Source: a virus
Lineage: Duplodnaviria; Caudoviricetes
Strand: one strand, 5' to 3'
Virus record (IMG/VR): IMGVR_UViG_3300046331_000070
Coordinates: 1-63,331 of that record
DNA length: 63,331 nucleotides
Shown here: one piece after another, positions 31,560 through 46,068 of the stretch
Position numbering within the stretch: position 1 is the stretch's first letter
Layout: each line of letters begins with the position of its first letter
Translations under genes and position numbers: made by a program
Notes under the pieces: model-generated
Seen by the model: only the letters and a program-made list of their open reading frames with translations
Told to the model about the DNA's origin: nothing
Databases searched by the model: none

Positions 31560-31598
31560 AAACCCAGACGACCAAAAGTTCTCTGGGTTTTTTGTTTT
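31560..31598 (+). terminator. Attenuator terminator
   Basis: AAACCCAGA/TCTGGGTTT stem followed by T-run; 5' arm can alternatively pair with 31513-31529. Confidence 0.75.
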
Positions 31599-31601
31599 AT
31601 G

Positions 31602-31654
31602 TGTTGCGTAAAAACAACAGTGTGGTTGACAAATAGAACCGGTTGTTATATAAT
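31602..31654 (+). promoter_or_regulatory. Sigma70 promoter with upstream TGTTG-N8-CAACA palindrome (copy 1)
   Basis: Palindrome 31602-31619; TTGACA at 31626, 17 nt, TATAAT at 31649. Confidence 0.8.
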
Positions 31655-31694
31655 ACGTTCTGTTGTGTTGATTTAGTAAGAAATTTAGATCAGT

Positions 31695-31768
31695 TGGGGA
31701 TTAGTTAAATGGTATAACTACGGATTTTGATTCCGTCGTTACAAGTTCGATTCTTGTATCCCCTGCCA
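31695..31768 (+). tRNA. tRNA-Gln (TTG)
   Basis: ACGGA-TTTTGAT-TCCGT; CCA. Confidence 0.9.
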
Positions 31769-31909
31769 TAATTAAGTGTTATAAGGTATCGTGTATTGAC
31801 GAATACACTATTCGGGTCCAACCGGCCGGGAACGGATCCTGACATAACTGCATCGGCTTTGGATGGGAAGCACCCAACTCTTAAATTGGCAGATAGCACT
31901 TAATTATGG
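31766..31909 (+). ncRNA. Structured RNA cassette closed by a 17-bp stem
   Basis: CCATAATTAAGTGTTAT/ATAGCACTTAATTATGG; internal hairpins GTGTATT/AATACAC and GGGTCC/GGATCC. Confidence 0.55.
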
Positions 31910-31917
31910 TAACAAAT

Positions 31918-32007
31918 GGAAGTGTGGCAGAGCCTGGTTTATTGCACCTGACTTGAAATCAGACGTATCGAAAGGTACCGTGGGTTCGAATCCTACCACT
32001 TCCGCCA
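31918..32007 (+). tRNA. tRNA-Ser (TGA)
   Basis: CTGA-CTTGAAA-TCAG; long variable arm; CCA. Confidence 0.92.
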
Positions 32008-32059
32008 GTATTAAAAATACTAAATAACAGATGACTCAACTGTTACTTAGGAAAATAAA

Positions 32060-32458
32060 ATGAATGTTAATCAAAAAGGTGTTAAAGGACTTATCAAAGT
32101 TATTGATGATTTACAAGATAGTGGTTATTATACGTTTACTGCGTTTGATGACCATTCACCAATAGATTTAATTGCTGTAGACAAACTTGGTAATTCTTAT
32201 AGACTTCAAGTGAAGTATAGAGAAAAAGATCCAAGAAAAATTAGTGAAAAATATTCAATCAACGCTTTTAGTGTTGTATCGGGCAAAAAAGTTCCAATAG
32301 ATAGAAATATGATCGATGGTTGGGCAGTTTATTTGGCCAACGTCAATCGGGTTGTTTACATTAATAAAACTCTATTAAATGATAAAGTTTGTTTAGTTAT
32401 TGACCCAAATAAGAATTATGGAGAATTGGATGAGTGGTTTAAATCGGCACCCTGCTAA
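32060..32458 (+). CDS. PD-(D/E)XK-type free-standing homing endonuclease
   Basis: KG..G, PIDLI...RLQVKY motif; inserted between two tRNA-Ser genes. Confidence 0.7.
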   Translation: MNVNQKGVKGLIKVIDDLQDSGYYTFTAFDDHSPIDLIAVDKLGNSYRLQVKYREKDPRKISEKYSINAFSVVSGKKVPIDRNMIDGWAVYLANVNRVVYINKTLLNDKVCLVIDPNKNYGELDEWFKSAPC

Positions 32459-32511
32459 GGTGTTGTGTTAGGAAACTAGCGCCGTGGGTTCAAATCCCAC
32501 ATTCTCCGCCA
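32420..32511 (+). tRNA. tRNA-Ser (GCT)
   Basis: GCACC-CTGCTAA-GGTGT; long variable arm; CCA. Confidence 0.92.
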
Positions 32512-32516
32512 GATAT

Positions 32517-32609
32517 ACTCCTGTAGTGTAACGGTAGCACGACGAGATTTATATCCTCGATTCGCTAGATGGGCGGTTAGAAAGGGTTCGAATCCCTTCG
32601 GGAGTACCA
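32517..32609 (+). tRNA. Atypical tRNA-Ile (TAT) with long variable arm
   Basis: ACTCCTG/CGGGAGT acceptor stem; CGAG(A)-TTTATAT-(C)CTCG; variable hairpin TCGCT/GGCGG; normal T-arm; CCA. Confidence 0.7.
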
Positions 32610-32625
32610 ATTTTAGAAAGTTATT

Positions 32626-32829
32626 ATGTTTAAAGTGTATTGGACAGTAATAGGACAAACCTATGGTCAAGAATTTGAAGATATGACACAAGCACTTAAT
32701 CAATGTCAAAGTTTAAGAAACAGTGGTGCAAGGTTTGTTACAATGTGTAGTGAGAATCCGGATAATGTCACAAAGATGGGCGTTGCAGAAACCGGTTCTG
32801 ACTATAATTGGAAAAAACGTAGAGTTTAA
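32626..32829 (+). CDS. Hypothetical protein
   Basis: Fills the gap between two tRNAs exactly; plausible composition. Confidence 0.6.
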   Translation: MFKVYWTVIGQTYGQEFEDMTQALNQCQSLRNSGARFVTMCSENPDNVTKMGVAETGSDYNWKKRRV

Positions 32830-32830
32830 T

Positions 32831-32907
32831 GTGGGTGTGTCGCTGAATGGTTAGGCAAAGGATTGCAAATCCTCATTATGCAGGTTCGAGTCCTGTCACC
32901 CACTCCA
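32831..32907 (+). tRNA. tRNA-Cys (GCA)
   Basis: AGGA-TTGCAAA-TCCT; U73; CCA. Confidence 0.88.
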
Positions 32908-32912
32908 AACGA

Positions 32913-32965
32913 TGTTGTGTAAAAACAACACACTGGTTGACAAATAGAATTAGATGTTATATAAT
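32913..32965 (+). promoter_or_regulatory. Sigma70 promoter with TGTTG-N8-CAACA (copy 2)
   Basis: Palindrome 32913-32930; TTGACA at 32937, 17 nt, TATAAT at 32960; near-duplicate of 31602-31683. Confidence 0.8.
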
Positions 32966-32999
32966 ACGTTCTGTTGTGTTGATTCAGTAAGAAACAAGT

Positions 33000-33061
33000 T
33001 GTTGCAGGAAAACAACAGTGTGGAAATAGAAGTTGCCAAAACGAGTGACTTCTGATATAAT
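33000..33061 (+). promoter_or_regulatory. Sigma70 promoter with TGTTG-N8-CAACA (copy 3)
   Basis: Palindrome 33000-33017; TTGCCA at 33033, 17 nt, TATAAT at 33056. Confidence 0.7.
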
Positions 33062-33107
33062 GTTGTTTCAGTAGTTGATGTTCATTAAAAATTTAAGTTT
33101 TATCAGT

Positions 33108-33182
33108 GTACCGTTAGACTTCTGGTGAGGTCACCACCCTTTCAAGGTGGCTAGATGGGATCGTAACCCATACGGTATACCA
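33108..33182 (+). tRNA. tRNA-Glu (TTC)
   Basis: CCACC-CTTTCAA-GGTGG; atypical T-loop ATCGTAA; CCA. Confidence 0.88.
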
Positions 33183-33293
33183 TATTAAAACATATTGCAT
33201 GACCGCCTCAGTGAAGGGATTCTAGAAGCCCGGTAGCGATCAATGCTTAAACATGCAGATGGGTTCGCATGGTGCAGTGTGTTTTAATATGGT
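33179..33293 (+). ncRNA. Stem-closed RNA cassette, family A
   Basis: ACCATATTAAAACATATTGCAT/GTGCAGTGTGTTTTAATATGGT, 22 bp including G-U pairs. Confidence 0.6.
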
Positions 33294-33301
33294 AATTCAA
33301 T

Positions 33302-33386
33302 GGGGATGCGGCTAAGTTGGAGAGTGGCGGCTGACTGTAAATCAGTTCTTTCGGGTGAGTAGGTTCGATTCCTTCCATCCCCACCA
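33302..33386 (+). tRNA. tRNA-Tyr (GTA)
   Basis: GCTGA-CTGTAAA-TCAGT; variable arm; CCA. Confidence 0.9.
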
Positions 33387-33450
33387 AGTTTTAATTTTTT
33401 TATAAAGGAAATTGTATGAAGCGAAAATCAAGTAAAACACGAAAACCCTC

Positions 33451-33525
33451 GGGGGTATAATTCAATGGTTAGAATATCCGGCTTTTAACCGGTCAATCAG
33501 AGTTCGAGTCTCTGTGCTCCCACCA
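33451..33525 (+). tRNA. tRNA-Lys (TTT)
   Basis: CCGG-CTTTTAA-CCGG; CCA. Confidence 0.9.
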
Positions 33526-33617
33526 ATATTAAAACATATTACTGACAATAGCGCAACGATAAGATGCCATGAGCACCTACAATAGAAGCACGATAAGATA
33601 GTATGTTTCAATATTGG
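33523..33617 (+). ncRNA. Stem-closed RNA cassette, family A, with internal tandem repeat
   Basis: CCAATATTAAAACATATTA/TAGTATGTTTCAATATTGG; loop has 2x ACAATAG-N4-ACGATAAGAT. Confidence 0.6.
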
Positions 33618-33644
33618 AAAATTATAAACAAGATTGGTGATAAT

Positions 33645-34571
33645 ATGATATTAGTTACTGGCGGCGCAGGATTTATCGGGTTAAACTTTGTAAAACATCT
33701 TTTAAAACTTAATGAAGATGTGGTTGTGGTTGACAACCTTACATATGCTAGTAATCCTAATGTTTTAATGTCGTTAAAAGTAAAACATGAATGTGTTGAC
33801 ATTGTAGATAATGTTGCATTAACATCGACACTAGATAATTATTCTTTCACTAAAATTTATCATTTTGCTGCTGAAAGTCATGTGGACAATTCAATTAATG
33901 ATGTGATGCCCTTTGTAAATTCTAATATAATCGGCACAATTAATTTATTGAATTATTTTAAAAATAAAGATGTAAAATTTATTCAGGTATCTACTGATGA
34001 GGTTTTTGGTGAAGTACCATACCCCGGCAAGTTTAATGAATATTCTAATATTGTTCCTCGTAATCCATATTCAGCAAGTAAAGCGAGTGCTGAACATTTT
34101 GTTAATGCATATAAGAATTCATATAAAATGAACACCGTTATTGTTAATAGTAGCAATAATTATGGACCGTATCAACATATTGAAAAGATGATTCCAAAAA
34201 CAATCACAAACATTATACAGAACAAAAATATTCCCGTATATGGCCAAGGCTTACAGATTCGTGATTGGATTTATGTAGAGGATACATGTGAAGCTATCTA
34301 TAAAATTTCTATGTTGGACAATAATATAGATAGATATTGTATTGGTGCTGATTATGAAATTAAAAATATCGATTTGGTTAAACGAATTGTATTAATGATG
34401 GACGCAAGCACCGATTTGATTAGTTATGTAAATGATAGACCTGGCCACGATATGCGTTACAGTACAGAAATTATTCAATTGCTACGCGATACGGACTGGC
34501 GGGTTACTCACTCATTAGATGTGGGACTTCAAAAAACAATCGAATGGTATAAAAATGAAAATAGGATTTAA
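33645..34571 (+). CDS. rmlB: dTDP-glucose 4,6-dehydratase
   Basis: GGAGFIG, AAESHVD, STDEV, YSASK, DRPGHD.RY. Confidence 0.93.
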   Translation: MILVTGGAGFIGLNFVKHLLKLNEDVVVVDNLTYASNPNVLMSLKVKHECVDIVDNVALTSTLDNYSFTKIYHFAAESHVDNSINDVMPFVNSNIIGTINLLNYFKNKDVKFIQVSTDEVFGEVPYPGKFNEYSNIVPRNPYSASKASAEHFVNAYKNSYKMNTVIVNSSNNYGPYQHIEKMIPKTITNIIQNKNIPVYGQGLQIRDWIYVEDTCEAIYKISMLDNNIDRYCIGADYEIKNIDLVKRIVLMMDASTDLISYVNDRPGHDMRYSTEIIQLLRDTDWRVTHSLDVGLQKTIEWYKNENRI

Positions 34572-35070
34572 TTGTTCAAGTTTTGATTTGTTTCATGCAG
34601 GTCATGTAACAATGTTAAAGATGGAAAAAGAATTATGTGATTATCTAATTGTGGCACTACAAGTTGATCCGACTGTCGATAGACCAGGCATTAAAAACAA
34701 ACCTACACAATCAATTTATGAACGATATGTACAATTACAATCGTGTAAGTATGTGGATGAAATATTGGTATATTCGACCGAATATGATTTACTTCAATTA
34801 TTGATGACACAAAAAATTAATATTCGTTTTTTAAGTGATGAATATCTAAACCGTGATTTTACTGGTAAACAATATTGTGTCCAGAATGGGATTGAATTGC
34901 ACTATCATAGACGTGAACACGGATATAGTTCCACAGAGTTGCGTAATCGAGTATATATACTCGAAAAGCAAAAACATGAACTGCAAGAACATGATATTGA
35001 TTTACCACAACATTCAACGGAATTAGTTGCAAAAAGTTTACCTATCATGTATGTTAAAACTGCAATATAA
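34555..35070 (+). CDS. Cytidylyltransferase (TagD-like), second copy
   Basis: FDLFHAGH, LQVDP..DRP, SSTELR. Confidence 0.85.
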   Translation: MKIGFNCSSFDLFHAGHVTMLKMEKELCDYLIVALQVDPTVDRPGIKNKPTQSIYERYVQLQSCKYVDEILVYSTEYDLLQLLMTQKINIRFLSDEYLNRDFTGKQYCVQNGIELHYHRREHGYSSTELRNRVYILEKQKHELQEHDIDLPQHSTELVAKSLPIMYVKTAI

Positions 35071-35099
35071 TCATCAGTTAATAATTATAAATGAAATTG

Positions 35100-35174
35100 G
35101 GTCTCAAAGTGTTCATGGACGCACATATGCCTGTCACGCATATAGAAGGGGATCGTTACCCCTTGAGACCGCCA
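35100..35174 (+). tRNA. tRNA-Asp (GTC)
   Basis: TATGC-CTGTCAC-GCATA; atypical T-loop ATCGTTA; G73; CCA. Confidence 0.88.
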
Positions 35175-35365
35175 GAGCAAAAGATGTCTGTGTGGTGTCT
35201 TTCGGGAATCACTAAGGTATCCAACGGTTGTAAGTGACGATGGGTGATATCGGAACTTTCAAGAATAAGTTGCAACTAATCTCGGTGCTCCCGTTCTCCC
35301 GAGTTAAAATGACTGACTGTAAGTTCTCCCTCTACGAGATAAAACTTTCAGTAATAACGGGGCCA
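35175..35365 (+). ncRNA. Candidate structured RNA ending in GCCA
   Basis: GAGCA/TGCTC-closed domain, then CCCGTT/AACGGG-closed domain followed by GCCA. Confidence 0.4.
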
Positions 35366-35381
35366 GAATTTAAAGTTTTAT

Positions 35382-35461
35382 TGCGGGATAGAGGAGTCCG
35401 GTCGTCCTCGCTAGTCTCATAAGCTAGAAATCGTGTGGTTCGAATCCCACTCCCGCAACCA
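35382..35461 (+). tRNA. tRNA-Met (CAT), initiator-like body
   Basis: TGCGGGA/TCCCGCA; CTAGT-CTCATAA-GCTAG; CCA. Confidence 0.85.
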
Positions 35462-35512
35462 AGTTTCAAATAGTTAATATATATAAATAGATTAACAAAA
35501 GGAGTTAATCAA

Positions 35513-35854
35513 ATGAATATATGTCAATGGCATCTTTGTAACAGTGAAACAAAAACAAAATTTTGCAGTACAAAATGCAAAAATAAATTTCATGTTGTAA
35601 AGAGAAGAAAAGTATTAAAGGAACAGGCTCTAACCTATATGGGTGGAAAATGTAGTATATGTGACTATGATAAATGTACATCCGCATTAGAGTTTCATCA
35701 CATAGACGAGAAAGAAAAAGATTTTGGAATCTCACAAGATGGTAATACTAGAACGTGGGAAGAAATAAAAAAAGAATTAGATAAGTGTGTTTTACTCTGT
35801 GCAAACTGCCATAGAGAAGTTCATGCTAAATTGAATAGTTTTATTCCTCAGTAG
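35513..35854 (+). CDS. HNH endonuclease
   Basis: CxxC pairs, ALEFHH, LLCANCHREVH; late promoter TATAAATA at 35482. Confidence 0.85.
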   Translation: MNICQWHLCNSETKTKFCSTKCKNKFHVVKRRKVLKEQALTYMGGKCSICDYDKCTSALEFHHIDEKEKDFGISQDGNTRTWEEIKKELDKCVLLCANCHREVHAKLNSFIPQ

Positions 35855-35919
35855 CTCAGCGGTAGAGCGACGCACTGTTAATGCGTTGGTCATTGGTTCG
35901 ATCCCAGTCTGAGGAGCCA
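35845..35919 (+). tRNA. tRNA-Asn (GTT)
   Basis: ACGCA-CTGTTAA-TGCGT; CCA. Confidence 0.92.
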
Positions 35920-35922
35920 AGT

Positions 35923-36148
35923 TTTGTAGTTTGTGTTAGATGTTGGGAAAGCAAAGCCTCGAAAACTTTGTGAAAGGGATAATCAGCGCGAATCTGGCTA
36001 AACTAGTAATCTCTGTTACTGACTATTACTGATGTGTCCATACTGGCCTACATAGTCGAAAGATTATGTGTGAGTACACCGCACCGTGCCGGACGGCTGA
36101 CGGGTGAACGATGAAGATAATAAGGACTTCATGCGAACTACAAATTCA
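35923..36148 (+). ncRNA. Large structured RNA, family B
   Basis: TTTGTAGTTTGTGT/ATGCGAACTACAAA closing stem; ACATAGTC-GAAA-GATTATGT hairpin inside. Confidence 0.55.
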
Positions 36149-36150
36149 AT

Positions 36151-36239
36151 ATCCCCCTTGCATACGGGGTACAATGTGATAAATTGTGTGCAGTCATACA
36201 GACCCCGACTTCGTATCCTCGGTCGATAAACGAGGATAC
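36151..36239 (+). ncRNA. Two adjacent H-type pseudoknot candidates
   Basis: CCCC/GGGG with loop TGCAT pairing to GTGCA; CGAC/GTCG interleaved with GTATCCTCG/CGAGGATAC. Confidence 0.45.
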
Positions 36240-36311
36240 ATATTAAAGCACATACTCGTCAATCTGGAACCGCGATGCCGAAAAGATTGGTGACAATGTG
36301 TGCTTTAATAT
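36240..36311 (+). ncRNA. Stem-closed RNA cassette, family A
   Basis: ATATTAAAGCACATA/TGTGTGCTTTAATAT; inner CAATCT/AGATTG. Confidence 0.6.
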
Positions 36312-36316
36312 AATTT

Positions 36317-36391
36317 GGGCTGTTAGTGCTAACGGGAACACATCTGGTTTGCAACCAGAAATTGAGAGTTCGATTCTCTCACGGTCCACCA
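36317..36391 (+). tRNA. tRNA-Ala (TGC)
   Basis: TCTGG-TTTGCAA-CCAGA; G3-U70; CCA. Confidence 0.9.
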
Positions 36392-36399
36392 AGTTTTAT

Positions 36400-36475
36400 G
36401 CCCCCTTAGCTCATCTGGTAGAGCACATGATTTGTAATCCTGAGGTGGTCTGTTCGAGTCAGACAGGGGGCACCA
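36400..36475 (+). tRNA. tRNA-Thr (TGT)
   Basis: Loop TTTGTAA; GCCCCCT/AGGGGGC; CCA. Confidence 0.9.
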
Positions 36476-36612
36476 GTATCCCGATTTACACTTTTGCGTG
36501 ATTAAAAGTGCGTCATTGCTAATACGATAGATGGCTCAGTTCTTATGATATTACTGCGAAGTCCCGCTACATGGGAGCCTTGAAAAATCATAGGTGTATT
36601 CAGATACCGCCA
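36476..36612 (+). ncRNA. Candidate structured RNA ending in GCCA
   Basis: GTATC/GATAC end-pairing; CACTTTT/AAAAGTG, TATGAT/ATCATA and TCCC/GGGA helices; 3' CGCCA. Confidence 0.45.
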
Positions 36613-36677
36613 AAATAACAATATCTGACGGACAGGGTAACTACTCAGTCTGGGGCTTATGGGAATAAGTAGCCAGA

Positions 36678-36787
36678 CACTTTATTAAAACATATTGTGG
36701 AGAGCACTGTATAGACTAGGAAGGTTTGACCCGACCTAATATATCACTCGGTATCCTGCGGCCGCAACAGTATGTTTTAATAAAGTG
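36678..36787 (+). ncRNA. Stem-closed RNA cassette, family A
   Basis: CACTTTATTAAAACATATTGT/ACAGTATGTTTTAATAAAGTG, 21 bp. Confidence 0.6.
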
Positions 36788-36860
36788 CGGGATTAGTTTA
36801 GGGGCAAAACTAGAGATTTCCAATCTTTCGTCATCGGTTCGATTCCGATATCCCGCTCCA
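36787..36860 (+). tRNA. tRNA-Gly (TCC)
   Basis: AGAGA-TTTCCAA-TCTTT; U73; CCA. Confidence 0.9.
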
Positions 36861-36867
36861 AGTTTAT

Positions 36868-36935
36868 GCGGCAAGGTATTAACCACACAGTGGCACCCCC
36901 ATTGTGGCTTAGTGAGAATCTAGGTTGCCGCTCCA
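36868..36935 (+). ncRNA. tRNA-like RNA lacking a D-arm, Gly-type acceptor stem
   Basis: GCGGCAA/TTGCCGC-T-CCA; T-like arm CTTAG-TGAGAAT-CTAGG; 8-bp hairpin CACAGTGG/CCATTGTG. Confidence 0.65.
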
Positions 36936-36943
36936 GTTTCAAT

Positions 36944-37017
36944 CTCGGTGTAGTGTAGTGATAACATACGTGGTTTGGGACCATGTGTCGAAGGTTTGAT
37001 TCCTTCTACCGAGACCA
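36944..37017 (+). tRNA. tRNA-Pro (TGG)
   Basis: CGTGG-TTTGGGA-CCATG; CCA. Confidence 0.88.
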
Positions 37018-37019
37018 AT

Positions 37020-37094
37020 GGTAGTGTAGCATAACGGTAGTGCGCCACCTTCATACGGTGTAAAGTGTAAGTTCGATTCTTACCACTACTACCA
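37020..37094 (+). tRNA. tRNA-Met (CAT)
   Basis: CACC-TTCATAC-GGTG; CCA. Confidence 0.85.
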
Positions 37095-37103
37095 AGGTTT
37101 AAT

Positions 37104-37179
37104 ACCACCTTCGTATAATGGATGATTACCTAACGCTACGAACGTTATTACGGGAGTTCGATTCTCTCAGGTGGTACCA
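37104..37179 (+). tRNA. tRNA-Arg (ACG)
   Basis: TAACG-CTACGAA-CGTTA; CCA. Confidence 0.88.
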
Positions 37180-37186
37180 AGTTTTT

Positions 37187-37260
37187 GCTCCGATAGTTAA
37201 ATGGTATAACTTTGGCTTGATAAGCCAACATCACAAGTTCAATTCTTGTTCGGAGTACCA
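37187..37260 (+). tRNA. tRNA-Ile (GAT)
   Basis: TTGGC-TTGATAA-GCCAA; CCA. Confidence 0.9.
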
Positions 37261-37268
37261 AGTTTTAT

Positions 37269-37342
37269 TACGGTGTAGTATAATGGCAGTGCTGCGGTCT
37301 CCAAAACCGCCAGTGGGGGTTCGATTCCCTCCACCGTAGCCA
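37269..37342 (+). tRNA. tRNA-Trp (CCA)
   Basis: GCGGT-CTCCAAA-ACCGC; CCA. Confidence 0.9.
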
Positions 37343-37357
37343 ACAAAGGGAGTTATT

Positions 37358-37828
37358 ATGAAACGATTGGATTTAATGGAAGTAAAAGCGTTCATTGATG
37401 CACAGAGTCCAGAAACTAAAATTTATCTGGGTGCTGACTCAGAACGTTTTAGATTGAACGATGTGTGGTACGCTGATTACACATTAGCCGTAGTCGTTCA
37501 TATTGACGGTAGACATGGTTGTAAAATCTTTGGTGAAGTTGTTCGCGAAAGAGATTATGACCAAAAGAAAAGCAAACCTTCAATGCGTTTGATGAATGAA
37601 GTATATAAAGTTTCAGAGTTGTTTCAAAAACTATCTGACGTATTAGAAGATCGTCATGTTGAAGTTCACTTGGATATTAACCCAAACGAAATGTACGGTT
37701 CTTCATGTGTAATTAATCAAGCAATTGGTTATATCAAAGGAACTTGTAATGTTATTCCAATGGTTAAACCACAAGCGTTTGCAGCATCATATGCAGCAGA
37801 TAGATTGAAACACGTTTTATACGCATAA
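37358..37828 (+). CDS. RNase H-like YkuK/DUF458 family protein
   Basis: IYLGADS, RLMNEV, EVHLDIN, KP.AFAASYAAD. Confidence 0.8.
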   Translation: MKRLDLMEVKAFIDAQSPETKIYLGADSERFRLNDVWYADYTLAVVVHIDGRHGCKIFGEVVRERDYDQKKSKPSMRLMNEVYKVSELFQKLSDVLEDRHVEVHLDINPNEMYGSSCVINQAIGYIKGTCNVIPMVKPQAFAASYAADRLKHVLYA

Positions 37829-38534: not shown

Positions 38535-38609
38535 GCTTCGGTAGCATAATGGTTAATGCCACTGCCTCTAAATCAGCCTATGTGGGTTCAATTCCCACCC
38601 GATGCACCA
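38535..38609 (+). tRNA. Putative amber suppressor tRNA (CTA)
   Basis: Canonical spacing places loop CTCTAAA with anticodon CTA; anticodon stem has only 3 WC pairs (CTG/CAG); D- and T-arms intact; CCA. Confidence 0.7.
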
Positions 38610-39338: not shown

Positions 39339-39836
39339 ATGCAAAAACGCTCACAGAATAGAGATTTGGCTATACAACAAAAACAAAAAACGTACATGAG
39401 TACACCATGTAAAAAGTGTGGTTCGGAAGAAAAATACGTTTCGAGTTATGGTTGTGTGAGTTGTAATATTGAAAGAAATTCTCACAAATTATTTGATGAA
39501 GAATTGATGAGTAAATATAAAACACCTGCTGTATTAAATTCAAAAACATACAGATATAGAACTAAAAAAAGAAATCAAATGCCGGATGATGCAGATCCAA
39601 AATTAATATTAAAATTTTATGAAGAATCTGAAAGATTGACCAAAGAAACTGGAATAAAATATAGTGTAGATCATATTATACCGATTTCTAAAGGTGGTTT
39701 ACATCACCAAGACAATCTTCAAGTGATAACATTAAGTGAAAATAGTAGAAAAGGAAATAGATTATGCCAGCAGTATTCCTCACATCCGACAGCCACTTCG
39801 GACACACCGGTGTGTGTAGATTCACTGATTCTGTGA
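39339..39836 (+). CDS. HNH endonuclease
   Basis: CxxC..CxxC, VDHIIP..KGGLHH..NLQ...EN..K; late promoter TATAAATA at 39307. Confidence 0.88.
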   Translation: MQKRSQNRDLAIQQKQKTYMSTPCKKCGSEEKYVSSYGCVSCNIERNSHKLFDEELMSKYKTPAVLNSKTYRYRTKKRNQMPDDADPKLILKFYEESERLTKETGIKYSVDHIIPISKGGLHHQDNLQVITLSENSRKGNRLCQQYSSHPTATSDTPVCVDSLIL

Positions 39837-40333
39837 CAGGTTTAAAGATTAGACCATGGACCGATCCAGATGAAATGGATGAGGAAATGGTCAAAAGATG
39901 GAACGATACGGTACGACCAAACGATAAAGTTTACCACCTTGGTGATGTTGTTATCAACCGTAAGGCACTCAAAACTATGAGCAGACTTAACGGTGATAAA
40001 GTTCTCATTCGTGGTAACCATGATATCTTCCGTGATGAAGAATATCGTGAATATTTTCGTGAACTTCGTGCATATCATGTAATGAACGGAATGATTCTTT
40101 CACATATTCCTATTCATGAAGAAAGTATTGGTCGTTTTGGAACAAACATTCATGGACACCTACATACAAGGCGTGTCATGAAAGATGGAATAATTGATCC
40201 AAGATACCATTGCGTATGCGTTGAACAAACAGACTTTGCACCTATTCTTTTCGAAGATGTTGTTAAGAGAATCTTAGCTGAAGGTGGTTCTGTTGGATTC
40301 AAAGAAAGAGTAGTCCGGTCCTCTGCTGATTAA
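39764..40333 (+). CDS. Calcineurin-like metallophosphoesterase
   Basis: SDSHFGH, HLGDV, GNHD, HGHLH. Confidence 0.9.
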   Translation: MPAVFLTSDSHFGHTGVCRFTDSVTGLKIRPWTDPDEMDEEMVKRWNDTVRPNDKVYHLGDVVINRKALKTMSRLNGDKVLIRGNHDIFRDEEYREYFRELRAYHVMNGMILSHIPIHEESIGRFGTNIHGHLHTRRVMKDGIIDPRYHCVCVEQTDFAPILFEDVVKRILAEGGSVGFKERVVRSSAD

Positions 40334-42543: not shown

Positions 42544-42852
42544 ATGGATATTATTGTACTAAAACTCACCTCAAACGAAGAAGTCCTAGCAGAGATTGAA
42601 TCTCAGTCAGACACCCAATACGTTCTTAAAAACCCAGTAGGAGTCGCAATTGTCCGTGGCAAAGATGGACAACCTAGTGTCGGTTTCGCACCATTCCCAC
42701 TTCATGCAGAACAAAAATCAAATGCAATCATTGCCATTGATAAGTCACATGTAGTATATTCTTATGTTCCTGCTGAAGATTTTATCAGTAATTATAACCA
42801 GATTTTCGGTTCAGGTATCGTATTGCCTTCACAACAAATCATCACAGGTTAA
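42544..42852 (+). CDS. Hypothetical protein upstream of gp43
   Basis: GGAG SD; KL..EE..A..LKNP..Y...FGSGI..P pattern. Confidence 0.7.
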   Translation: MDIIVLKLTSNEEVLAEIESQSDTQYVLKNPVGVAIVRGKDGQPSVGFAPFPLHAEQKSNAIIAIDKSHVVYSYVPAEDFISNYNQIFGSGIVLPSQQIITG

Positions 42853-44147
42853 TGAAAAACTTCTATACTAATGTCCAGAATGTCGGTGGAAATATTCTCT
42901 ACCGTGGAATTATGGATGGAAAAAGAGTAAAGCAGAAGATCGAATACTCTCCATCCCTTTATGTGCCATCCAAGAAAAAGGAAACACAATATAAGACACT
43001 TGATGGACAATATCTAGACAGAAAACTATTTGGTAACATCTATGAAGCCAGAGATTACGTTAAACAATTTGACGGGGTTTCTGGTGGAGTAAAAATCTAT
43101 GGTAATACCAGATATGAATATGCCTACATTGCAGAACAACATGCAGAAATGGTTGAATGGGACCAAGATAAAATTCTGACTGCAATTATCGATATTGAGG
43201 TTGGATCAGAAAATGGTTTCCCTGATCCATATTTGGCCAATGAACCTATCACAGCAATTGCCATTACCTATATTGGTGGTCAGACCATCGTATTTGGTTG
43301 TGGTGATTATGTGGTACAAGGTGAAGAAATCTATATTAAATGTAGAGACGAATGGACTCTTTGTAAGAAGTTCATGGAAGTATGGACTAAAAAGTGTCCA
43401 GATATCATCACGGGTTGGAATACCAAGTTCTTCGATATTCCATACATTGTCAATCGGTTTCGTAAGATTCTAGGTGAAGATGAAACTCGTAAATTGTCTC
43501 CATGGTTCTATATCAAAGAACGTAAGACAAACATCAATGGTCGTCAACTGATTGCATATGAAATGGTTGGTGTATCTTCTCTTGATTATATCGAACTATA
43601 CAAATGGTATGCACCAGGTGGAAAGTCACAAGAATCCTATCGACTGGATGCTATTGCACAGGTCGAATTAGGTGAAGGTAAAATCTCGTATGATGAATAT
43701 GAGAACTTGCATCAATTGTATCGTTTGAACTATCAGAAGTTTATTGAATACAACATCAAAGACGTTGCACTGATTCTACGGTTGGAAGATAAGTTGAAAT
43801 TGTTGGAGTTGGCAATGACTCTGGCATACGATACCAAATGTAATTATGAGGATGTATTTGCACAAACTCGTATGTGGGATTCACTGACATATTCTTATCT
43901 GTTGCAGAAAGATATTATTGTTCCTCCACGCGAGACTCAGGACAAAGATGCTGCATTTGAAGGTGCCTATGTTAAAGAAGTTCAGGTAGGTAAACATGAT
44001 TGGGTTGCATCATTCGACTTGAACAGTCTGTATCCTCACTTGATGATGCAATATTCCATAAGTCCTGAAAATCTTGTGGAAAGAAGCTATATTGAAGGTA
44101 GAAAACAAAAATTAATTAATGAATTAAAGTCGAGAAATACTAAATAA
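42852..44147 (+). CDS. gp43: Family B DNA polymerase gp43, N-terminal part (exonuclease plus motif A)
   Basis: DIEV ExoI, GWN..FD ExoII, YN..D ExoIII, SFDLNSLYP. Confidence 0.95.
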   Translation: MKNFYTNVQNVGGNILYRGIMDGKRVKQKIEYSPSLYVPSKKKETQYKTLDGQYLDRKLFGNIYEARDYVKQFDGVSGGVKIYGNTRYEYAYIAEQHAEMVEWDQDKILTAIIDIEVGSENGFPDPYLANEPITAIAITYIGGQTIVFGCGDYVVQGEEIYIKCRDEWTLCKKFMEVWTKKCPDIITGWNTKFFDIPYIVNRFRKILGEDETRKLSPWFYIKERKTNINGRQLIAYEMVGVSSLDYIELYKWYAPGGKSQESYRLDAIAQVELGEGKISYDEYENLHQLYRLNYQKFIEYNIKDVALILRLEDKLKLLELAMTLAYDTKCNYEDVFAQTRMWDSLTYSYLLQKDIIVPPRETQDKDAAFEGAYVKEVQVGKHDWVASFDLNSLYPHLMMQYSISPENLVERSYIEGRKQKLINELKSRNTK

Positions 44148-44176: not shown

Positions 44177-44710
44177 ATGAAATATGATATTACTAAAGAT
44201 AAGCTTTATGAATTGTTTATTGATAAAAATATGAGGCGCAGTGAGGTTGCTGAATATTTTGGATGTTCTGAGGCAAACATCAAGAAATACCTACAAAAGT
44301 TTGACATAAAGAAACCTTTTGTGTTAGAATGTAGAAACAAAGAACGCAAGGCCAAGGTCAAGTGTTTACATTGTGATGAAGCATATCAAACTCAACAGTT
44401 TAGAACCGAGAGTGAAAAATACGATTCAAAGTATTGTAGTTATTCTTGTGCTCAAAAAAGTCGTTACCTAGGTGAAGAACATAAACAAAGAATTAGAAAT
44501 GAAATTTCTGCAAGACGTAGAGCCAGATTACGCAATCAAACACCAAATTTGTCTAAGGAAGAAAAACAGAAAATGCAAGAGTATTATTTGATTTGTCCTA
44601 AAGGATATGAAGTAGATCATATACAACCAATTGCAAAAGGTGGATTACATCATCCGGACAATTTACAAATATTGACTAAAACTGAAAATAGAAAGAAGTG
44701 GTGTAAATAA
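44177..44710 (+). CDS. HNH homing endonuclease splitting gp43
   Basis: N-terminal HTH, zinc finger, VDHIQP..KGGLHH..NLQ...EN.KK. Confidence 0.88.
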   Translation: MKYDITKDKLYELFIDKNMRRSEVAEYFGCSEANIKKYLQKFDIKKPFVLECRNKERKAKVKCLHCDEAYQTQQFRTESEKYDSKYCSYSCAQKSRYLGEEHKQRIRNEISARRRARLRNQTPNLSKEEKQKMQEYYLICPKGYEVDHIQPIAKGGLHHPDNLQILTKTENRKKWCK

Positions 44711-46068
44711 TGTTTCGTAATGTAAAAGAATTAACAACCGAAGAACTACAAAAAGAACTTCAGGCCATAGAATTATTTGAACAAGAAATTAGTAAAGTCA
44801 ATGTTAATAACATGTTGAACAAATCGATCGATACCTCTTTTCTTGGACCATTGCAATGCACACTCACACCTAATGGACAGTTGTTTAGAACCGACCGGCA
44901 GGGTTTCTTGCCTGCGATGATGGAAGAAATGTATGAAGATCGTAAGAAGTTCAAGAAGTTGATGTTGAAGGCAAAGCAAGAGTACGAAGATGAAAAGGAT
45001 GAATCTAAGAAGTATGATATTGAAAAACGTATTGCACGATTCGATAACCTACAACTTGCAAAGAAAGTATCTCTAAACTCTGCATATGGTGCCTTGGGTT
45101 CACAATACTTCCGTTTCTATGATCTACGCAATGCACTAGGCGTAACATCAGCAGGACAGTTATCCATTCGTTGGATTGAAGCAAAGATCAATGACTGGAT
45201 GAACAAGATCATTGGTGGCGAATCAAAAGACTATGTTATTGCTTCTGACACAGATTCGATTTATCTTCGTATGGGTGAATTGGTTAATAAGTTTATCAAA
45301 GACACATCAGATAAACAAAAGGTCATTGCACTCATGGATAAAATCTGTGAAGAAAAGATTCAACCATATATTGACAAGAGTTACAATGAGTTGGCAGAAT
45401 ACGTCCACGCCTATGCACAGAAAATGCAAATGAAACGTGAAGGTCTTTCTGACAAAGGTATCTGGACTGCCAAGAAACGTTATATTCTGAATGTGTATAA
45501 CAATGAAGGTGTTCAGTATAATGAACCAAAAATGAAAGTGATGGGACTTGAGATGATTAAGTCCTCAACACCTTCAGTGATTCGTGGTAAAATGAAAGAA
45601 TCAATTCTGATAATGGTGAACGGCACTGAAGATGATATCCACAAATTCATTAAAGACTTTAGGGAAGAATTCAAGAAGTTGCCACCAGAAGATATTTCAT
45701 TCCCTCGTGGTATGAATGGCCTGAGAAACTATTCTGATCCGGTAACATTGTATAAGAAAGGTACTCCGATTCATGTTAAAGGTGCAATTCTATATAATCA
45801 CTTCCTGAAACAACATGATTTGACTAAAAAATATCCTCTAATCCAAGAAGGTGAAAAGATTAAGTTTTGTTATCTAAAGATGCCGAATCACTTTAAAGAT
45901 ATGGTAGTTTCGTATCCTTCGCGCTTACCTAAAGAATTTGGGCTTGACAACTACATCGATTATGATGTACAATTTGATAAATCGTTTCTTGAGCCCATTA
46001 AGGTCATTCTTGACTGTATGAAGTGGACGACAGAAAAAACAAACTCTTTGGAAGATTTTTTCGGATGA
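44710..46068 (+). CDS. gp43: Family B DNA polymerase gp43, C-terminal part
   Basis: Q.AKK..LNSAYG motif B, DTDS motif C, KKRY, KSSTP. Confidence 0.95.
   Translation: MFRNVKELTTEELQKELQAIELFEQEISKVNVNNMLNKSIDTSFLGPLQCTLTPNGQLFRTDRQGFLPAMMEEMYEDRKKFKKLMLKAKQEYEDEKDESKKYDIEKRIARFDNLQLAKKVSLNSAYGALGSQYFRFYDLRNALGVTSAGQLSIRWIEAKINDWMNKIIGGESKDYVIASDTDSIYLRMGELVNKFIKDTSDKQKVIALMDKICEEKIQPYIDKSYNELAEYVHAYAQKMQMKREGLSDKGIWTAKKRYILNVYNNEGVQYNEPKMKVMGLEMIKSSTPSVIRGKMKESILIMVNGTEDDIHKFIKDFREEFKKLPPEDISFPRGMNGLRNYSDPVTLYKKGTPIHVKGAILYNHFLKQHDLTKKYPLIQEGEKIKFCYLKMPNHFKDMVVSYPSRLPKEFGLDNYIDYDVQFDKSFLEPIKVILDCMKWTTEKTNSLEDFFG

Follow-up and report, generated by a model that had tools for sequence, protein, structure and literature searches.

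Stable RNAs that are not transfer RNAs (tRNAs) have been known from the tRNA clusters of phages since the work on T4, and their function is still unexplained. Here we describe a family of such elements, which we call cassettes, in the tRNA array of an uncultivated phage and its relatives: a constant terminal helix closes interiors, or payloads, that differ from one cassette to the next. The starting point was IMG/VR viral record IMGVR_UViG_3300046331_000070, a 63-kb fragment of a genome that is ~38% complete; all 63,331 nucleotides (nt) were analysed and are referred to as the window. An earlier reading of these letters alone (the sequence-only reading) had picked out four cassettes with one shared stem, numbered 1 to 4 here, and a fifth with an analogous stem. 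We find that the cassettes belong with the non-tRNA RNAs of phage tRNA clusters; what is new is the principle on which they are organised, exchangeable payloads on a constant handle.

The T4 RNAs rnaC and rnaD (species 1 and 2) are small non-tRNA RNAs that adjoin tRNA genes on the tRNA strand (NC_000866), as the cassettes do. The fold of rnaC, with paired ends and a T-arm directly before the 3' strand, is also the layout of those payload classes that carry a T-arm (see below). However, there is no homology: the covariance model of the cassette family gives nothing at L118 1409-1672 and at best 11 bits elsewhere, and the stem motif is missing. Furthermore, the terminal pairing of rnaC is short (3 + 5 base pairs in the fold) compared with a median of 19 base pairs (bp) in the cassettes, and T4 has two such RNAs, whereas the helix described here is common to more than 100 payload classes. 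A second parallel is offered by the YrlA Y RNAs of bacteria and phages, which are bound by Ro60/Rsr and to which a published account (PMC4201824) ascribes a length of 80-130 nt, a long end-formed stem that serves as a protein handle and a variable module that mimics tRNA. The cassettes have the same layout, an end-formed long stem closing a variable or tRNA-like module. However, the gene for Ro60 (TROVE, PF05731) was found in none of the five records searched (the window and four large contigs), although the same search was positive in two control genomes. The YrlA model of Rfam reaches only 23.9 bits (threshold 69), at 36335-36454, over tRNA-Ala and tRNA-Thr, and the stem sequences are unrelated. 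GOLLD and ROOL, according to a further source (PMC12286853), are structured phage RNAs with no known function that often lie near tRNA islands. GOLLD does occur in one cassette-bearing array, 8 nt upstream of a cassette (207.5 bits), but both RNAs measure several hundred nt, have one conserved fold each and are not within the family helix.

In the leader-trailer helices of ribosomal RNA (rRNA) and at the early ribonuclease III (RNase III) sites of phage T7, a helix of about two turns flanking the mature RNA is a processing signal in a polycistronic transcript. Such stalks need no sequence conservation, whereas the cassette helix, for which cleavage is predicted, is strongly conserved and, unlike the rRNA and T7 stalks, overlaps the CCA end of a tRNA in one third of cases. 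In engineered tRNA-guide RNA arrays and in mitochondrial tRNA punctuation, RNAs lying between tRNAs are freed by RNase P and the tRNA 3' endonuclease. Forty-two of 227 cassettes are similarly flanked by tRNAs within a few nt on both sides, but punctuation cannot be the sole route of release because more than half of the cassettes are not tRNA-flanked. A literature search that included the arm sequence as text turned up no account of the helix, nor of cassettes with a constant stem in the tRNA arrays of phages. Single payload classes may be listed in the supplementary tables of a catalogue of 10,006 candidate viral RNAs (PMC10690425).

The closing helix and its spread among phages

In the window, inverted repeats lie where the sequence-only reading had placed its four cassettes and the fifth (Table 1). 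The 13-nt arm motif TATTAAARCAYAT, allowing one mismatch, has seven matches in the 63 kb, where 1.40 would be expected; no shuffled sequence out of 100 reached seven, and all seven matches are confined to the four cassettes. All five cassettes fold as closed hairpins (z = -4.3 to -5.6; none of 200 shuffles folds equally well). Run on the whole window, the family covariance model recovers exactly the four cassettes (43.8-56.3 bits), and for each of them the + strand outscores the - strand by 10-18 bits. Several details that had been read from the letters proved real, namely the G-U pairs, the exchange of A-T for G-C at position 8 in cassette 3, the pairing of three stems with the CCA of the preceding tRNA (Glu, Lys and Gln) and the unrelated interiors of the four cassettes, which fall into separate similarity clusters. 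Other long intergenic stretches of the array were considered as structured RNAs and rejected (fold z 0.17, -2.09 and -0.01).

We then looked for relatives with a two-arm pattern, TATTAAARCAYAT followed by a gap and RTRTGYTTYAATA, which holds no tRNA information. In 2.9 million IMG/VR viral contigs this pattern had 113 loci with a gap of 40-70; widening the gap to 71-100 gave 39 loci, of which 37 were new; the control pattern, read backwards, had two. tRNA arrays were present in 109 of 114 sources (the 113 loci and the window), with 1641 tRNAs in 1.05 Mb, all on one strand per locus, and in all 37 new loci of the second scan (490 tRNAs), so that 146 of 150 loci have a one-stranded array. Grouped at 90% identity, the 109 loci fall into 86 groups. 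In each of five contigs of 177-285 kb the model matches are restricted to one region, and the gp23-type capsid protein of four of these contigs is only 34-39% identical to that of the window; thus, phages that have diverged deeply still share the helix sequence. A scan of prokaryotic genomes (596 Gb, bacteria and archaea) with the pattern gave three loci, all without tRNAs, two of which are long perfect palindromes. The near-perfect long palindromes at L124 790-873 and L126 5691-5761, on contigs of Saprospiraceae metagenome-assembled genomes, have no tRNAs nearby, match the pattern at their ends by chance and are unrelated to the cassette family.

Known sequences and models gave no counterpart. 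The family model had no match in five isolate genomes picked by protein likeness or tRNA content (S-CRM01, S-WAM1, S-CREM1, HTVC008M and Melnitz), a blank that is meaningful, for those five only, since the same search gave 5/5 on family contigs. A consensus-like cassette compared with 50,697 phage records (blastn, distant mode, E <=10) had no match, in a search whose low-complexity filter may mask the A/T-rich arms. Rfam 15, run on the whole window at curated thresholds, reported only tRNA over the array and nothing on the cassettes, and likewise nothing on them at E values up to 5 over 29-41 kb. In 13 related loci it reported only tRNA, transfer-messenger RNA (tmRNA), GOLLD and Polynucleobacter-1, none of them on a cassette.

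The closing helix has the consensus (A)CCA-UAUUAAARCAYAUU / AGURUGYUUYAAUA-UGG(U), in which the conserved core is 13 bp long; the helix is A/U-rich. Uninterrupted, it measures 19 pairs in the median (interquartile range 17-20, maximum 24); with tolerated mismatches the stems comprise 16-28 pairs. In loci with tRNAs, the asymmetric pattern was found on the tRNA strand only in 94 + 33 cases, on both strands in 18 + 4 and on the opposite strand only in none. At positions 8 and 11, where the pattern had left R/Y free on both arms, the 88 unique sequences have G-C 36, A-U 40, G-U 12 and A-C 0 times, and C-G 42, U-A 31, U-G 15 and C-A 0 times, respectively. An alignment of 118 representatives, one per payload class, extends this to the flanks. 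In it, 89.5% of the cells of the 21-pair helix pair, and sliding the partner by 1-3 columns lowers this to 32-48%. The count is partly circular for the 13 core pairs, on which the sequences were selected, while the outer and inner pairs were unselected. Changes on both sides occur in 17 of the 21 pairs, and the observed values were reached in none of 500 shuffles. The unselected pairs covary too (columns 3-147, 4-146, 5-145, 19-131 and 20-130): columns 4-146, for example, hold CG 74, UA 18 and AU 5 times, and columns 20-130 show five pair types. The outer pairs also covary with their context, being ACCA/UGGU in one setting and CACUU/AAGUG in another. Two departures from Watson-Crick pairing recur, a U-G wobble at core position 13 (93 of 118 representatives, 76 of 88 pattern matches) and position 5, which takes A-U, G-C or A-C (A-U 57, G-C 28 and 'other' 32 of 118). 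Finally, an unbiased scan for tRNA-abutting stems of at least 14 pairs in the family loci returned the family consensus in 135 of 214, and many of the remaining stems are A/U-rich variants that likewise start from ACCA.

Because the asymmetric helix pattern is confined to the tRNA strand, its free positions take Watson-Crick or G-U but never A-C pairs, and the unselected flanks covary, the comparison of sequences indicates that the helix is selected at the level of the transcript. Readings of the arms as a T4 MotA box, a late promoter or an NtcA site were rejected: the arms covary as a helix, and no + strand promoter lies at them.

Placement, payloads and exchange

The position of the cassettes relative to tRNAs was counted for 227 strict cassettes. 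Seventy-three begin directly after a tRNA, and in all 73 that tRNA ends in CCA, which is paired in the helix. Downstream, a tRNA follows within 15 nt in 75 cassettes, in 26 of these after a single nucleotide; tRNAs abut both sides in 42 and neither side in 121. Some tRNAs are favoured as upstream neighbours (Lys-UUU 25, Glu-UUC 13, Leu-UAG 9, Thr-UGU 8 and Gln-UUG 6), and a site with the order Lys(UUU)-cassette-Met is retained in several lineages although the interior differs. CCA stands ahead of the core in 118 cassettes; therefore CCA/UGG is in the helix consensus even where there is no tRNA. The adjacency to tRNAs, the favoured neighbours and the retained site would suit a cis-acting element that helps tRNAs to mature or insulates their folding: it would sequester the upstream CCA and the next leader, and so set the order or timing of processing, while its interior would be a drifting loop of no importance. 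Fold-back control of tRNA 3' maturation had indeed been an option of the sequence-only reading, but as a general role it does not survive the 121 cassettes that abut no tRNA, or a locus such as L070, where nine model matches in 2.7 kb accompany a single tRNA. Nor do the interiors drift: they are conserved between contigs with compensatory changes, and payload classes recur in different helix contexts, that of cassette 4, for example, in L082 at 86% identity. We consider a cis-acting role of this kind unlikely. For the same two reasons, the tRNA-free cassettes and the case of L070, tRNA-processing enzymes alone explain only part of the family.

The payloads are highly diverse. The 228 strict cassettes comprise 189 unique sequences, whose interiors (median 49 nt, range 23-151) sort into 125 similarity clusters; 89 of these have a single member. 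Inside a cluster, the single-stranded motifs are conserved, and between them stand hairpins with compensatory substitutions; one class, for example, reads AGGCAAC-[hairpin]-UAGUAAGGUGGCAU. The payload of cassette 1 has no relative among the family loci collected. A T-arm-like hairpin stands beside the 3' arm in 19 of the 189 cassettes and in 10 of the 125 classes, against 0.065 expected; one of the ten classes is counted solely on account of a spurious pairing around a real tRNA. As this hairpin always lies 14-22 nt from the cassette end, it would stack on the closing helix. Four of these cassettes can be aligned with D-like and anticodon-like arms, and in L112 (3430-3542) the anticodon-like loop of one T-arm payload contains UUA. 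The T-arms, and above all the four cassettes with further arms, raise the question of whether cassettes are decayed or aberrant tRNA genes in which the repeat has replaced the acceptor stem. Such an origin is hardly credible: 115 of the 125 classes have no T-arm, interiors go down to 23 nt, the helix is selected and not decaying, and neither ARAGORN nor the Rfam tRNA model makes a call.

The exchange of payloads is best seen in L117, a close, collinear relative of the window (80-97% identity). Cassette 4 is exactly missing there, with seven unrelated nt between the same flanks, ..CCAGACA and TGCGGG... After tRNA-Glu the payload within the same arms is another, longer one, and an extra cassette of a second stem type comes next. 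The site after tRNA-Lys keeps the unusual outer helix CCAAUAUU../..AAUAUUGG with a different inner helix and payload, which places the breakpoints inside the arms. The payload of cassette 2 reappears in L117 as a 96.6% identical copy between tRNA-Gln and tRNA-Ser, and after tRNA-Gln itself a cassette of the second type in the window is matched by one of the family type in L117. Across contigs, the conserved array-leader site (flanks AAAAU...AGCG and CACAC..) has hosted at least seven payload classes, with one clean payload swap between L057 and L080. Over 95 comparisons of related-locus sites, reciprocal pairs included, the payload was the same in 88, a different payload or an added cassette was seen in six, and there was none in one. 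At the level of sequence, these comparisons show that the payload is a unit with the helix as its boundary, which phages replace, move, gain or lose as a whole, and the earlier proposal of modular payloads is thereby strengthened, both by the more than 100 payload classes and by replacement inside identical arms between near-identical genomes. With breakpoints inside the constant arms, the arms double as homology for recombination between phages. In four DNA runs compared with 31600-37400, contigs of related phages join tRNA genes in different orders. Joints that touch the arms (33183 to 35095 and 33191 to 36786) show 85% likeness with short sides and unknown letters between, and nothing is concluded from them.

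Conserved repeated ends around a variable centre, placed between co-oriented genes and with units exchanged at the ends, are also a feature of integron attC cassettes and of the promoter-stem-loop (PeSL) cassettes of T4-type phages. The attC core sites are RYYYAAC / GTTRRRY; the consensus arms of our cassettes, UAUUAAAAC / GUUUYAAUA, do not fit this motif, and no integrase was found. Unlike PeSL cassettes, ours hold no promoter in the arms, and their interiors are conserved structured RNAs with pairing of the transcript type. In a DNA-level explanation, the cassettes are miniature inverted-repeat mobile elements or attC-like recombination sites, the arms are kept by a recombinase or homing nuclease and transcription is incidental. 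Several of the observations above would suit it: the exact presence or absence of cassette 4, the replacement of payloads inside identical arms at two sites, the relocation of payload 2 in L117, the swaps at the array leader and the conservation of the arms, which far exceeds that of the capsid protein. Furthermore, genes for HNH, GIY-YIG and PD-(D/E)XK nucleases lie within the arrays, and a folded single DNA strand of fixed polarity would be compatible with the data. However, the asymmetric helix goes with the tRNA strand in 127 cases against 0, the tolerance of G-U but never A-C at the free positions is not imposed by recognition of duplex DNA, the outer pairs covary with context and hairpins are maintained in the interiors. 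There is no target duplication at the single informative site, the empty cassette 4 site of L117. The tyrosine recombinase PF00589 was found neither in the window nor in the five contigs of 177-285 kb (records 38-86% complete), although the same search was positive in 14 of 14 control genomes. In place of the shared interior of a miniature inverted-repeat transposable element, there are 125 interior clusters among 189 unique cassettes. Terminal repeats of DNA with target duplications, which the sequence-only reading had named as the finding that would count against it, are thus opposed by the empty site and by a helix asymmetry that follows the transcript strand, and we regard a DNA-level explanation as very unlikely.

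The arrays also carry other RNAs and recurrent protein genes. The GOLLD RNA lies at L040 7302-7765, and related arrays hold tmRNA (beta-, alpha- and permuted-type models) and Polynucleobacter-1 RNAs, further sites of known RNAs being L032 3936-4294, L014 9381-9527 and 10790-11187, and L111 1678-1833. No GOLLD, tmRNA or Polynucleobacter-1 RNA is enclosed by the family helix, an arrangement that we considered and rejected. Their presence hints at freshwater Burkholderiales-type hosts. Among protein families, 109 loci contain dual-specificity phosphatase 24 times, metallophosphoesterase 21, RNA polymerase omega/Rpb6-like 20, PF04308 RNase H-like 14, radical SAM 11 and AAA_33 P-loop kinase 11 times (sites include window 37358-37828 and 39764-40333, and loci L043, L075, L015 and L023); PF04308 is also in two of the five large contigs. 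Together these genes look like an RNA-repair and RNA-modification toolkit.

It is in this setting that the payloads might be decoys, sponges or mimics aimed at host factors, diversified in an arms race, with tRNA-targeting defence nucleases, tRNA-binding or RNA-repair proteins and the ribosome as candidate targets; decoys for defence proteins had already been raised in the sequence-only reading. The idea is compatible with small RNA genes that have a handle and payloads, and it would account for the extreme diversity, the turnover between close relatives, the tRNA-like T-arm stacked on the helix in 10 of 125 classes, the enzymes of RNA-repair type encoded in the arrays (kinase, metallophosphoesterase and phosphatase) and the company of other enigmatic phage RNAs. 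Against this, no host RNA, Rfam family or known aptamer matches the payloads, inspection by eye recognised no mimic of an anticodon loop, and a payload that is stable in 88 of 95 comparisons is unlike a fast arms race. Such a role for the payloads is rather doubtful.

The tRNA array of the window and a second RNA family

The source phage is an uncultivated freshwater T4-like myovirus. The window encodes a terminase, a tail sheath, a gp20-type portal, a gp23-type capsid protein and a split DNA polymerase; its portal is ~55% identical to those of Kyanoviridae cyanophages, with no isolate closer, and parts of the window are present in 24 freshwater DNA data sets, with no RNA set among the runs listed. 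ARAGORN places 28 tRNA genes between 29.7 and 40.6 kb, all on the + strand. Table 1 gives those that border the cassettes, together with the promoters that precede them. A promoter and terminator scan showed no + strand terminator-like site within the promoter-led cassette groups.

Table 1. Positions in the window of the cassettes, the tRNA genes beside them and the promoters upstream
Feature	Position	Strand	Remarks
Sigma-70-type promoter	31626-31654	+	12/12 consensus; upstream of tRNA-Gln and the fifth cassette
tRNA-Gln	31695-31768	+	its CCA pairs within the stem of the fifth cassette
Fifth cassette	31766-31909	+	own closing stem ..UUAAGUGUUAU / AUAGCACUUAA..; from CCA of tRNA-Gln; inverted repeat 31766-31782/31893-31909 (17 nt, 94%); z -4.35
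Sigma-70-type promoter	32937-32965	+	12/12 consensus; upstream of the Glu/cassette 1/Tyr/Lys/cassette 2 group
Sigma-70-type promoter	33033-33061	+	11/12 consensus with TG; upstream of the same group
tRNA-Glu(UUC)	33108-33182	+	3' ACCA paired at the start of the cassette 1 helix
Cassette 1	33179-33293	+	family helix, 5' arm from ACCA of tRNA-Glu; core 33183-33195 pairs with 33277-33289; inverted repeat 33178-33199/33273-33294 (22 nt, 91%); z -4.34; 55.8 bits on +, 37.7 on -
tRNA-Tyr	33302-33386	+	12 nt downstream of cassette 1
tRNA-Lys(UUU)	33451-33525	+	its CCA is part of the cassette 2 helix
Cassette 2	33523-33617	+	family helix from CCA of tRNA-Lys(UUU); z -4.96; 53.3 bits
Cassette 3	36240-36311	+	family helix, G-C at position 8; inverted repeat 36240-36252/36299-36311 (13 nt, 100%); z -5.64; 43.8 bits; orthologue in L117
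tRNA-Ala	36317-36391	+	6 nt downstream of the end of cassette 3
Cassette 4	36678-36787	+	family helix, outer pairs CACUU/AAGUG; inverted repeat 36678-36713/36752-36787 (36 nt, 78%); z -4.93; 56.3 bits; its end is the first base of tRNA-Gly
tRNA-Gly(UCC)	36787-36860	+	begins 4 nt past the core 3' arm of cassette 4

The fifth cassette stands apart from the other four. It does have a closing stem of its own, as the sequence-only reading held, but kinship to the four-cassette family is not borne out, the family model giving it 13.2 bits (E = 1.3). Over 79 nt its interior shares 92% identity with L151, and over 112 nt it shares 73% with L012, L064 and L078; the cassette can be aligned with L066 and in part with L022 and L060, with conserved blocks and varying hairpins. 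The alignment of this class has its own closing stem, ..AAGUGUUAUC / GAUARCACUU... On the strength of these alignments, the fifth cassette is assigned to a second RNA family of these arrays, ~145 nt long, and is not a variant payload.

Several other features of the array deserve mention. A module of ~90 nt occurs twice (31596-31690 and 32910-33000, +), and in each copy a perfect TTGACA-17-TATAAT promoter lies downstream of a short stem-loop; we take these modules to resemble the promoter-stem-loop shuffling modules of T4-type phages. A tRNA with the anticodon CUA (amber) lies at 38535-38609 (+; ARAGORN label Pyl, 55.9 bits with the Rfam tRNA model) and may be a suppressor tRNA. Unusual in length are a 93-nt tRNA-Ile(UAU) at 32517-32609 (+) and an 80-nt tRNA-Met at 35381-35460 (+); related arrays, such as those of L040, L011 and L022, also have long tRNA-Ile(UAU) genes (90-95 nt). 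Directly after cassette 2, at 33646-35070 (+), are genes for a NAD-dependent dehydratase/epimerase and a cytidylyltransferase-like protein (sugar-nucleotide functions). The start of the first of these open reading frames (ORFs) is probably at 33646, as the listed start at 33603 falls in the 3' arm of cassette 2. This sugar-nucleotide block of 1.6 kb is missing in L117, where tRNA-Asp directly follows the cassette.

Also present in the window and not in L117 are an HNH endonuclease-like ORF at 35513-35854 and tRNA-Asn at 35845-35919 (+). Further nuclease-type ORFs of the array are a PD-(D/E)XK ORF at 32060-32458, which overlaps the start of a tRNA-Ser, and an HNH ORF at 39339-39836. Downstream of the array, the T4-type DNA polymerase is split into two ORFs (42852-44147 and 44710-46068, +) that lie ~560 nt apart. 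An Rfam match to the S10-Clostridia leader at 43034-43115, inside the first polymerase ORF (35.2 bits, threshold 35.1), is probably a false positive.

Predicted processing and significance

On balance, we favour the reading that the cassettes are small structured RNA genes in tRNA transcription units, with a constant handle for processing or stability and exchangeable payloads. Confidence is high that they form an RNA family, and moderate in the mechanism of the handle. The products would be RNAs of 60-130 nt, each a closed hairpin, in which the A/U-rich terminal helix closes a payload from one of the more than 100 unrelated structured classes. They would be transcribed together with the tRNAs from early promoters of the host type and could be excised by the enzymes that mature their neighbours, with a cut after the upstream CCA and cleavage by RNase P at the downstream tRNA; for example, RNase P acting at tRNA-Tyr would trim the 3' side of cassette 1. 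For cassettes without tRNAs, a double-strand-specific nuclease such as host RNase III, named in the sequence-only reading as well, may act on a helix that would span about two turns, and a host enzyme must be assumed for this step because no RNase III gene was found in the window or in five large contigs. The constant helix would then be a handle for processing, for protection from exonucleases and/or for one conserved recognition factor, and the payload would carry the specific function. What speaks for recognition by one factor is the conserved wobble and mismatch, together with a sequence more strongly conserved than pairing requires. This factor would be encoded by the host since no phage gene co-occurs consistently; alternatively, recombination may keep the arms partly constant.

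What the sequence-only reading had proposed for the stem and its interiors, a processing handle with variable payloads under RNA-level selection in a tRNA unit, is strongly supported by ~150 loci with strand-specific wobbles. Several points weigh against the reading favoured here. Our evidence is wholly comparative and comes from uncultivated phages, so that discrete RNAs and their ends are predictions. The loci were fetched with a pattern derived from the window and the model was built from them, which makes the borders of the family and the conservation of the 13-bp core partly circular. The median of 19 bp places the A/U-rich helix at the lower limit for RNase III, and the RNase III gene was not found in the window or the five large contigs, all of them incomplete records. 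No protein gene co-occurs consistently with the cassettes, the maximum being 24 of 109 loci (which span 5-7 kb per side). Exchange is infrequent on short time scales, given how seldom the payload changed in the 95 site comparisons. Finally, processes at the DNA level could contribute to the high conservation of the arms.

A bolder version of this reading, possible but held only tentatively, is that the cassettes are a natural RNA display, in which a constant helix recognised by host machinery for processing and stabilisation presents more than 100 unrelated payloads that are traded among co-infecting phages, through recombination within the arms, as anti-defence decoys or mimics. If true, this system would be the RNA-gene counterpart of the integron, with payloads directed against tRNA-directed defences of the host or other RNA-binding factors.

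In summary, the cassette family would add more than 100 new classes of small structured RNA at once. It has a shared constant part, absent from earlier cases, through which these RNAs can be found, as the covariance model does, and pulled down, and through which their recogniser can be sought. The design could serve as a ready natural scaffold for the expression of arbitrary small RNAs from tRNA arrays. Furthermore, the combination of handle and payload, with the exchange seen among near-identical genomes, points to a general way in which phages may acquire and test new RNA functions.

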